Assembly: GCA_951406725.2 (NCBI GenBank) | Contig: OX597831.1 | Span: 82,336,001-82,400,000, forward strand | Length of the DNA: 64,000 nt | Reading direction: 5' to 3' | Source of the DNA: Octopus vulgaris | Lineage: Eukaryota | Part shown: one piece after another, positions 40,247 through 61,701 of the stretch | Layout: every line of letters begins with the position of its first letter | Numbering within the stretch: position 1 is the first letter of the stretch | Translations under genes and position numbers: made by a program | Notes under the pieces: model-generated | Seen by the model: only the letters and a program-made list of their open reading frames with translations | Told to the model about the DNA's origin: nothing | Database searches by the model: none

Positions 40247-40394
40247 CTGCACTCTCCTGTTTGGCTCTCTCAGAAGCTGCCGATGCCACACGACATTCTT
40301 GCAACTCTGGAGACGGTATAAGACCGGCTGGCTCCGTGGAGGGTGAGTTCCACTTTCGGGCCTGCCACCAATGAGGGTCATCTTTGTTGATTAC
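40247..40394 (-). CDS. CASK: CASK SH3 second exon ([49 protein letters not shown]), 148 nt, phase 0-1, GC donor
   Basis: Acceptor tttcag. WWQ and GLIPS are SH3 motifs. Donor CAG|gcaagt gives the phase 1 required by the next exon. A second in-frame GC donor would end the exon at 40193. Confidence 0.9.
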
Positions 40395-41351: not shown

Positions 41352-41450
41352 CTGTAATACATCTCCGATTTTGAAGGGTATTCCGGCTTGGGGGCAAGGA
41401 TTTAGTTCATCGGATGTTGGATCATAATCAAACAGAGCCCGAACAAATAT
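41352..41450 (-). CDS. CASK: CASK SH3 first exon ([33 protein letters not shown]), 99 nt, phase 0-0
   Basis: Acceptor ttccatag, donor CAG|gtaaat. Contains the ALFDYDP SH3 motif. Not in the ORF track; translated by hand. Confidence 0.95.
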
Positions 41451-59002: not shown

Positions 59003-61326
59003 TTCTTCCACTCCAGCAGTTCACCAACAATTTCAATGTATTTCTATGTCTTTATATTGTATGTGTGCTTCTGTGTGTGTTTGTATGCATGTATTTGAGT
59101 ACTTAGTGGTGTGTGTCTGTGATTAGATTTGCCTGTTTAAACTCTTGTTTTCCCTTATTCTGCTTTTGTTACGTACATACATATGTGCACATAAACATGT
59201 CACCTTACACCATGCTTCATATCTCATCATGTTTCAAGAAAGCTGGTTATTCTTTCCCCCTCTACGACTGACAAACCTCCACAACCTGTCCAAGATTTTA
59301 TTTTTCCCTCTAAAAGATTTTTAACTGCATTAAACTTATCATTTGCTGCTGCTGGATCATAGTAAAGAAGGGGTTACAATCAGGGGTGGAGATTGCTTCT
59401 CCCTCATGGATTTGATAACAAAATGTTGAGGCAGATTTCATAGACTGCAAAGACTCTTGAACCAGCGCTCAGGAGGACAACACAGTCCAGTCTCAAGAGC
59501 TGCTTATACTCAGAGGATTTAGATTTAATTAAGATTAAAAAGATCTCTAGCTATGTTTATTGACTGATCTGAAAATGGTGAAACAATATTCCAACTTGGA
59601 AGGACTTGGAAAGGACCATTAGGCCTGTGAATCTTTTGAAGGAGGTCAATTTGGGGGAGTGTTTATTGATCCCACATAAATTACATATCTGCTGACATGT
59701 AGTGTGTGTATGTGTATATAAATGCATGTGTGTGTCACATGTTGACATGTAGTATACATGTCACCTATTGACTTAATATAGTATATATTTGTTGATGTGT
59801 AGTGTGTGTGTGTGTCAGCCCCGTGCTGACAGGGTATATATGTTGTATGTTGACAATACTGGTTTTTATCATATTCTAATATGAAACAAATTACCAACCG
59901 ACCGACTGACCAGCTGCAATAAATTTAGTTTATTATAAAACAAAAATATATAAAAATAAAAACACAAAGGAAGGTTATGAATGCAACAACTGATCTACAT
60001 CTGATGACACATGCTTGCAAAGGGTTAAAGAGCATGCATGACAACACATAGGATTGAAACCCTGATGGCACTTAGAACAATGCAAGAAGGTTTATTGCTA
60101 AGCTGACTAAGAAGCTTTCCCATATGGCAGCAAACTTTATTATTATTATTATTATTATGAGGATGGATGGCAGAATGGTGGATGCTTGACAGAATGATTT
60201 GCAGTACTTGGTTGGGTCTCTTTAAATTCTGATTTCAGATATCAGTTTGAACCGTTGTCCTTCATCCTTCAATACTCTCTGTAGAAGTTTGCATTATTTC
60301 GTTAGGGCGAATGGAAGAAGGATTTTTAAAAAATAATATACCCCCCCCCTATAAATCCATTCAGTTACATTTGCTTCTGTTTGAAGAGTTTCCAGCCCAA
60401 ATAATGTAAAGAAAATTCACACTTGATAATTGAACTGTGAAAGATGGTTTATAGGATTCAGTAGCATTGTGGTTCATTAAGAACTGGAAGTCTGAGAGTC
60501 TTAGATGCTCTTGTAACCAAATATCATTATTTGTCATCATTCATTAACACCACTTTCCATGCTATAAGGGGTGAGAGCATGAGGCAATGCCCTCCTACAC
60601 TGGCCAGGGCAAAGGTCATTTTTGATTATTGTGTTTTGTGAGGTGTAGACAAATATTTCCTTACAAGTGGTAAAAAGTTTGAAAGTAATAATAATTATAA
60701 ATTTATGATTAAAATATTTGAGTCACTTTGTTCTGAGTGATGGAGAAAGTTTTTGGGCTGTTTCAAAAACTGAAAGATAATGTTTCACAGACTAATATAT
60801 TGTTATGCTAGATAATTTATTTTAATGATAAGAGATGGAGAAAGAAAGTGTCTTTTATTGATGAAAATGAGCTGGAATTTGTTGATCTTTGAGTTATCAC
60901 TAAAGAGTCAACTTAGATCCATTCCTGTCTACATAGAGAAACTACCAACAAAAGGGCAGAGTTTAGTGACAACTCATCAGGAACTCTCCACCGATATGTG
61001 GGCTTTGTAGTATTGCATGTTGGTTTAACTAGATACCACTTCTGCAACAGTCATCTTAAATGTTTGAGTCAAATATTCCCTTTTAAATTTCCAGTTGTAT
61101 TCTTTAAAATCCTATTTGTAATATCACTAGTTAACCCTGAAAAACAGACTATTATTATCAGTATGGTAGCATTTCTGGGCAACTGGAGACATGATGGTGT
61201 TGAAGAGTCCTTAGTAAAGAGATGTTAAATAGTCACCACTGATAGAACTGTTTGCTATAGTAATAGTAGTGGGGGGGAGGAGGAGGAGGATAAGGAGGGG
61301 GCAGTGAAAATAAACGTAAACTCAAA

Positions 61327-61332
61327 CATGCA
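61327..61332 (-). promoter_or_regulatory. UGCAUG (RBFOX-type) element ~120 nt downstream of exon B
   Basis: Plus-strand catgca is TGCATG on the transcribed strand. The position is typical of inclusion-promoting sites, but a single hexamer can occur by chance. Confidence 0.35.
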
Positions 61333-61451
61333 GCAAAATAAAAATGAAACAAAAAATTAACAATGAACTGGCACCAGACTATATAGCTACTGCTAGACTG
61401 GGTAGGGGTCACTGCTGCCGGTGAAAGGCTGCAGGTGAATAGGATGATTAC

Positions 61452-61505
61452 CTCACACCGAGCCGGAACATATCTGTAACTAGGTACAGTCCGTTGTGCT
61501 TCTTT
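61452..61505 (-). CDS. CASK: CASK PDZ-SH3 linker exon B (KEAQRTVPSYRYVPARCE), 54 nt, phase 0-0
   Basis: Acceptor tttctgtcattccag, donor GAG|gtaatc, no stop. VPSYR...CE matches the end of the CASK PDZ-terminal exon. Confidence 0.8.
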
Positions 61506-61605
61506 CTGGAATGACAGAAATTGACAAGAAAGGTGCTTCAGAGAAAAGGGAAGTGAACAAGAAAATAAAGAGGATATAAGCAGTCTCAGATAAGGAATAA
61601 CATAC

Positions 61606-61701
61606 CTCTTTGGGGTTCAAACTCTGGTCGAATTTGTCACTGAAGTACCAGGAGGAAGCTGATGGGACAACATTGAAGCTGACGGGGCCTTGTAGAGATT
61701 T
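61606..61701 (-). CDS. CASK: CASK PDZ-terminal exon A (KSLQGPVSFNVVPSASSWYFSDKFDQSLNPKE), 96 nt, phase 0-0
   Basis: Acceptor ttttgtcag, donor GAG|gtatgt, open frame. GPVSFNVVPS aligns to CASK [10 protein letters not shown], the last PDZ beta strand. Confidence 0.72.

Follow-up and report, generated by a model that had tools for sequence, protein, structure and literature searches.

An old tandem duplication of the PDZ-terminal exon of CASK in lophotrochozoans, with a shortened copy probably serving as an optional linker exon in octopus

The window, i.e., the whole analysed stretch of 64,000 nucleotides of Octopus vulgaris (assembly GCA_951406725.2, contig OX597831.1, positions 82,336,001 to 82,400,000), carried part of the gene CASK on the minus strand. 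The exons of the PDZ-SH3-GK module were found in order, in agreement with named CASK proteins and with the domain order and sequence of the CASK/MAGUK p55 supramodule (1kwa, 6nh9, 4wsi, 1kgd). One GuK exon in the window was 100% identical to Octopus CASK records, and an Octopus isoform placed by tblastn had its exons ordered along the window and the stretch upstream of it, most mapped exons being 100% identical. The features concerned were as follows:

61606..61701, minus strand: CASK exon A, 96 nt, 32 codons, KSLQGPVSFNVVPSASSWYFSDKFDQSLNPKE
61452..61505, minus strand: CASK exon B, 54 nt, 18 codons, KEAQRTVPSYRYVPARCE; optional cassette
61506..61605, minus strand: A-B intron, exactly 100 nt, GT-AG
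41352..41450, minus strand: first SH3 exon of CASK, downstream partner of A and B; loose contig ends match its start
82429789-82429875 of the contig, minus strand: preceding PDZ exon, 32 kb 5' of A, beyond the window
61506..61535, minus strand: candidate alternative acceptor extension of B, with the AG at 61537-61536
61327..61332, minus strand: UGCAUG, 120 nt 3' of B

A preliminary description of this DNA had reported two phase-0 exons 100 nt apart, both starting with AAA and ending in GAG before a gt, and the mapped exon bounds bore this out: exons A and B were both phase 0/0, each with an AAA start after cag and a GAG end followed by gt. The upstream PDZ exon and the downstream SH3 exon both joined A and B in phase 0, so that every combination of the two stays in frame. 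The introns flanking the pair measured approximately 32.1 and 20.0 kb, the remaining mapped introns approximately 0.9–20 kb, with one additional gap of 114 kb; the intron range of 6–20 kb given previously was thus roughly right, except for two introns near 1 kb. Repeats and base pairing around exons A and B amounted to just short pairs at chance level. Further along the gene, the second SH3/HOOK exon (40394-40193, minus strand) had two GC-type donors 54 nt apart in an identical nine-base context, placing its end at 40247 or 40193, and an optional 18-residue insert was present or absent in octopus and decapod-type proteins.

Splicing was read from assembled contigs in six of 18 runs guessed to be RNA (six studies, three organism labels); none was recorded as RNA, yet their contigs joined at exact splice sites. 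The examined stretch excluded the flanking exons, which made a joint skip of A and B invisible in contigs. Contigs also lose rare forms, and their depths (e.g., 27.4 vs. 17.4 in X9) were not taken as inclusion levels. The upstream exon was joined to A in all six runs, A to B across the 100 nt in four (X9, X7, X14, and X1), B to SH3 in five, and A to SH3 with B left out in five (X9, X14, X8, X6, and X1). Exon B is hence a cassette exon, both included and skipped with the frame kept, as seen side by side in X9, X14, and X1; X8 held both the B-SH3 and the A-SH3 joins. A B-only join from the upstream exon was found in none of the six runs among the joins listed, the B contig of X8 being without upstream letters; since contigs lose rare forms, a minor B-only form may exist in octopus.

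The protein records gave the same picture. Of 16 octopus records (15 from a 38-member cluster, plus P0002), 12 contained A+B, three A only, and none B only, while the single record with neither exon was one database model, P0002. RefSeq Octopus CASK models likewise contain both A and B and show the two splice forms seen here (XP_036365343.1, A+B; XP_036365342.1, A-only). The choice observed in octopus was therefore A vs. A+B. Joint use of both segments in CASK mRNA, one of the options raised beforehand, was confirmed by the A-to-B join in four of six runs. Their use as mutually exclusive alternatives was not upheld for octopus, given that same join and the absence of B-only forms from the joins listed in all six runs and from all 16 records.

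Several further observations were made in this material. The PDZ-terminal exon was skipped entirely in P0002, P0019, P0025, P0069, and P0090 (octopus, ant, and unnamed CASK records); such skipping would remove the last PDZ strand, and these records may be model artefacts or real. Contigs of X1, X6, and X7 lay within 61100-61481, in the intron just 3' of B, and a 2.5-kb contig of X1 continued from B, representing either unspliced pre-mRNA or an alternative 3' end. A second, low-depth contig of X1 (6.1 vs. 77.2) differed by one letter in exon A at approximately 61634, near a lysine codon; A-to-I editing and allelic variation are no more than guesses here. The UGCAUG noted earlier near 61327, which we take to be an Rbfox-type motif, was indeed present at 61332-61327, but it proved non-specific: a match is expected by chance in about 7% of 150-nt stretches, and four of 12 mapped exons (three besides B) had one within 250 nt downstream. 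Its reading as a sign of neural control was rejected, as it is not specific to B.

The origin of both exons was assessed by alignment to peptides of other species. Octopus B scored 36.7 against 18 distinct intact B peptides from non-cephalopods (shuffles 1.8 ± 3.8; none of 2000 reached it) and −0.3 against the non-cephalopod A set, a value reached by 125 of 2000 shuffles. Octopus A scored 38.3 against the A set and 15.4 against the same 18 B peptides, neither score being reached by any of 2000 shuffles; compared directly, octopus A and B showed weak similarity (score 7.5). As B matched the B set and not the A set, and A matched both, B is the ancestral exon in truncated form and A its derived twin. 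The proposal of a tandem duplication of the PDZ-terminal exon was thereby supported, since both copies, aligned to intact B peptides, outscored every one of the 2000 shuffles; the two exons are adjacent, homologous to one ancestral exon, and share phase 0/0, as tandem duplicated exons do.

In cuttlefish, B was intact, with 23 residues. Octopus B was identical to it at 11 of 18 positions, with a single five-residue gap across the PDZ strand, while octopus and cuttlefish A were identical at 30 of 32; the earlier view that A keeps the strand and B is without it was correct. Among twelve proteins carrying these exon peptides, from cuttlefish or from unnamed Logan sequences, eight had intact B only, two A only, and two A plus an extended B. 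The N-terminal residues of B varied among Octopus species, and its last 12 residues were identical in both named species with a B record. Two of six unlabelled runs were examined (X18 and X20, both from other organisms); the two bridged the region, with no 15-nt insertion among the rows listed, and had in common one change in B at 61493, a sign that more than one species has the short B. Within the sample, which is without Nautilus, vampire squid, and cirrates, the five-residue loss appeared to be octopus-specific. A search of metagenome contigs for genomic DNA of relatives gave no matches.

Exon A aligned to the terminal part of the PDZ domain in solved human CASK structures (1kwa, 6nh9) and likewise in PALS1 (4wsi). 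For the A-only protein P0127, AlphaFold2 (mean pLDDT 75.8, pTM 0.62) placed a strand at residues 95-102, within exon A (residues 91-122), and gave residues 105-119 a pLDDT below 50. By alignment and model, exon A covers the close of the final PDZ helix, the final PDZ strand, and a tail that is predicted to be disordered and is nine residues longer than in the ancestral exon. High-affinity neurexin binding was reported to require the whole U-shaped PDZ-SH3-GK module (PMC12666738). Human CASK exons 19/20 sit in the same PDZ-SH3 linker, and the human linker variants were described as all binding neurexin, one slightly more than two others (PMC8208546), which speaks against a large effect. Because high-affinity neurexin binding needs the whole module and the human exons lie in the same linker, tuning by B is plausible; by analogy, inclusion of B may tune partner or neurexin binding.

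It had been suggested that a canonical copy of the exon lies upstream. Motif scans of the window and 150 kb upstream revealed no third copy. Local alignment of 5226 windows in 52 kb of flanking introns ranked B (42.1) and A (34.5) at the top, with no third copy, and the next-best windows, near 89.7 kb and 53.6 kb, were absent from the top AG..GT candidates. Among 670 open AG..GT candidate exons in both introns, only A and frames overlapping B stood clearly above background. A genome search with the cuttlefish-type PDZ-end peptide, a first look that may miss a 23-residue exon, had just two hits, namely the upstream exon and a 39% match (E=1.37). The suggestion thus found no support in the flanking introns or the genome search; B is itself the canonical copy, intact in cuttlefish.

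The spread of the pair was tabulated in 33 non-octopus lophotrochozoan groups (species or genera), with most states read from database gene models and incomplete cluster listings. Left out of the tabulation were one further chiton record bearing a B-type exon (P0364), which may belong to a paralog, and several records that were short or unnamed. A plus an intact 23-residue B occurred in 19 of the 33 groups. Separate A-only and B-only isoforms were seen in 12 of 33 (cuttlefish, the Logan set, Patella, Haliotis, Biomphalaria, Physella, Mytilus, three scallops, Mercenaria, and Lingula), and for 10 of these no A+B record was seen. Nine of 33 groups had intact A+B models, always with A ahead of B. 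Only A was recorded in nine of 33, including oysters (27 of 27 records seen), and only B in four of 33 (unionid mussels and three annelids); an exon missing from such incomplete listings need not have been lost, and oyster B may be either lost or unannotated. The Lingula records comprised five A-only and five B-only, and Helobdella had B. Protein records thus placed the pair in gastropods, bivalves, other molluscs, the brachiopod Lingula, and the nemertean Lineus, and the divergent longer tail of A was already present in species in which B is intact. The comparison with mollusc orthologs therefore dated the duplication before octopus, with the intact pair widespread. Insects and deuterostomes had one strand-bearing exon in the records listed.

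The peptides of each type were consistent among themselves, although the rows are related and not independent: the 32 A peptides were 26-35 residues long, 31 of them with V at core position 11 and 22 with a terminal KE, and all 22 B peptides were 23 residues long and had I at that position. Core position 3 was hydrophobic in A but L/M in deuterostome single copies and is hence not diagnostic. In a tree of 16 columns, 24 of 26 A cores fell on one side of a weakly supported split (UFboot 54), and two nemertean A cores lay outside the A group. Dreissena had A-only records (three) and records of A plus a divergent 22-residue optional segment (five: P0244, P0323, P0326, P0327, and P0329) sited where B would be; it is possible that this segment reflects a parallel, independent decay of B. 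Judging from these peptides, the duplication likely happened once, before mollusc diversification.

The 100-nt A-B intron had a pyrimidine tract at nt 31-66 (89% C/T), and its only yUnAy branch-like motifs lay 15, 29, 40, and 52 nt from the donor. With a steric limit on the branch point reported at approximately 50 nt from the donor (PMC7969005), the A-B intron still looks, in its sequence, like that of an exclusive pair; as A is spliced to B in octopus, any steric block is not absolute. The 30 nt before B translated identically to two cuttlefish gene models (P0007 and P0140) in 10 of 10 codons, so that 61535-61506 may be conserved as an alternative acceptor or as a regulatory element. An extension of B from the AG at 61537-61536 was absent among the joints listed in the six RNA-like runs.

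The arrangement resembles tandem duplicated exon substitution events (PMC9741552; OGDH 4a/4b, PMC7969005), which are described as likewise adjacent, homologous, phase-matched, old, and alternatives in related species; as in OGDH 4a/4b, the octopus intron is short and pyrimidine-rich, with branch-like motifs mostly within approximately 50 nt (PMC7969005). Unlike mutually exclusive homologous exons, however, A is always used in octopus, A is spliced to B, and B is without the homologous strand. Human CASK exons 19/20 are described as likewise optional in-frame PDZ-SH3 inserts in the PSG module, proposed to alter flexibility (PMC8208546), whereas the optional exon of octopus, B, is one of two copies of the PDZ-terminal exon itself and is truncated. 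The human study reports no variant without both inserts (PMC8208546), while octopus A-only was found in five of six runs. The last PDZ strand is supplied in octopus by the derived copy A, whereas insects and vertebrates use the exon orthologous to B. A title and abstract search (molluscs, lophotrochozoans) found no published description of the CASK exon pair, although exon catalogues in supplements could contain it; the main text of the human-centred PMC9741552 makes no mention of CASK, and RefSeq record names are silent on duplication, orthology, and strand loss. Both exons and both forms are already in RefSeq, and their duplication history was not found described.

We place the probability at roughly 0.78 that the locus reflects an old lophotrochozoan CASK exon duplication in which, in octopus, A completes the PDZ domain and the shortened ancestral B serves as an optional 18-residue PDZ-SH3 linker exon. 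An ancient either/or pair was likely turned into one in which A is always used and B is an optional linker. Ancestrally, A or B would have been used, with some A+B read-through, which would have been harmless because both exons are phase 0/0 and multiples of three. In A+B transcripts the strand would come from A; the strand of B would then have been redundant and could have been deleted along the octopus line, and, since a truncated B alone would be unable to complete the PDZ fold, A would have become obligatory. With B included, the PDZ-terminal segment grows from 32 residues to 50, and the longer segment may have a modest tuning effect on how the PDZ-SH3-GK supramodule closes and on ligand binding, in the manner of human exons 19/20.

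The same history would hold if octopus B were a decaying remnant, included through tolerated leakage without a selected role, to which we give somewhat less than even odds. Such decay would agree with the faster divergence of B than of A (11/18 vs. 30/32 identities to cuttlefish), with first residues of B that differ across Octopus species, with a tail of A already predicted to be disordered, and with the reportedly small effect of human linker variants on neurexin binding (PMC8208546); the oysters, A-only in 27 of 27 records, are also consistent with a dispensable B. Nevertheless, the deletion in B is in frame and both splice sites were retained, the two named Octopus species that have a B record agree at all of its final 12 residues, B was joined into contigs in five of six runs, and the 30 nt preceding it keep their 10/10 residue match to the cuttlefish models.

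Two other histories concern the duplication itself. Several independent duplications behind the A-type exons of different lophotrochozoan lineages are improbable: A tails are poorly alike across classes, and the nemertean A cores stand apart from those of molluscs with a support of just 54 for the A split, but A precedes B in all intact A+B models seen (nine groups), A copies have V11 (31/32) and terminal KE (22/32) in common, and octopus A scored 38.3 against non-cephalopod A vs. 15.4 against B. The preliminary description had favoured a lineage-specific duplication with reciprocal partitioning, i.e., a recent event on the octopus line after which A and B split the parts of the ancestral exon, with a canonical copy elsewhere. 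Octopus taken alone would suggest as much, with the strand in A and the terminal motif in B. This history is nonetheless very improbable and already largely refuted by cuttlefish, which have the same A with an intact B: the pair is common to gastropods, bivalves, a brachiopod, and a nemertean, in cuttlefish, gastropods, bivalves, and Lingula alike, a long-tailed A is accompanied by an intact B, and a third copy was found neither in the flanking introns nor in the genome search.

On the preferred reading of an old pair recast in octopus, the locus records a datable change of splicing logic, from intact and alternative exons in cuttlefish to truncated and additive ones in octopus. A bolder extension, which we regard as doubtful, would see a lophotrochozoan-wide either/or switch of the last PDZ strand and tail rewired repeatedly (in octopus and, separately, Dreissena) as the ancestral exon decayed to a regulated linker cassette, with octopus B inclusion acting as a neural switch of closure and neurexin-type affinity that converges, along another route, on the mechanism of human exons 19/20. 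The practical impact is moderate, as RefSeq models already include both exons and the effects of the human analogue are small. The exon pair lies inside the CASK PDZ of common models of mollusc neurobiology (Lymnaea, limpets, abalone, and scallops), and three natural states of one synaptic scaffold, namely intact B only, A only, and A plus a short B, are open to direct comparison.
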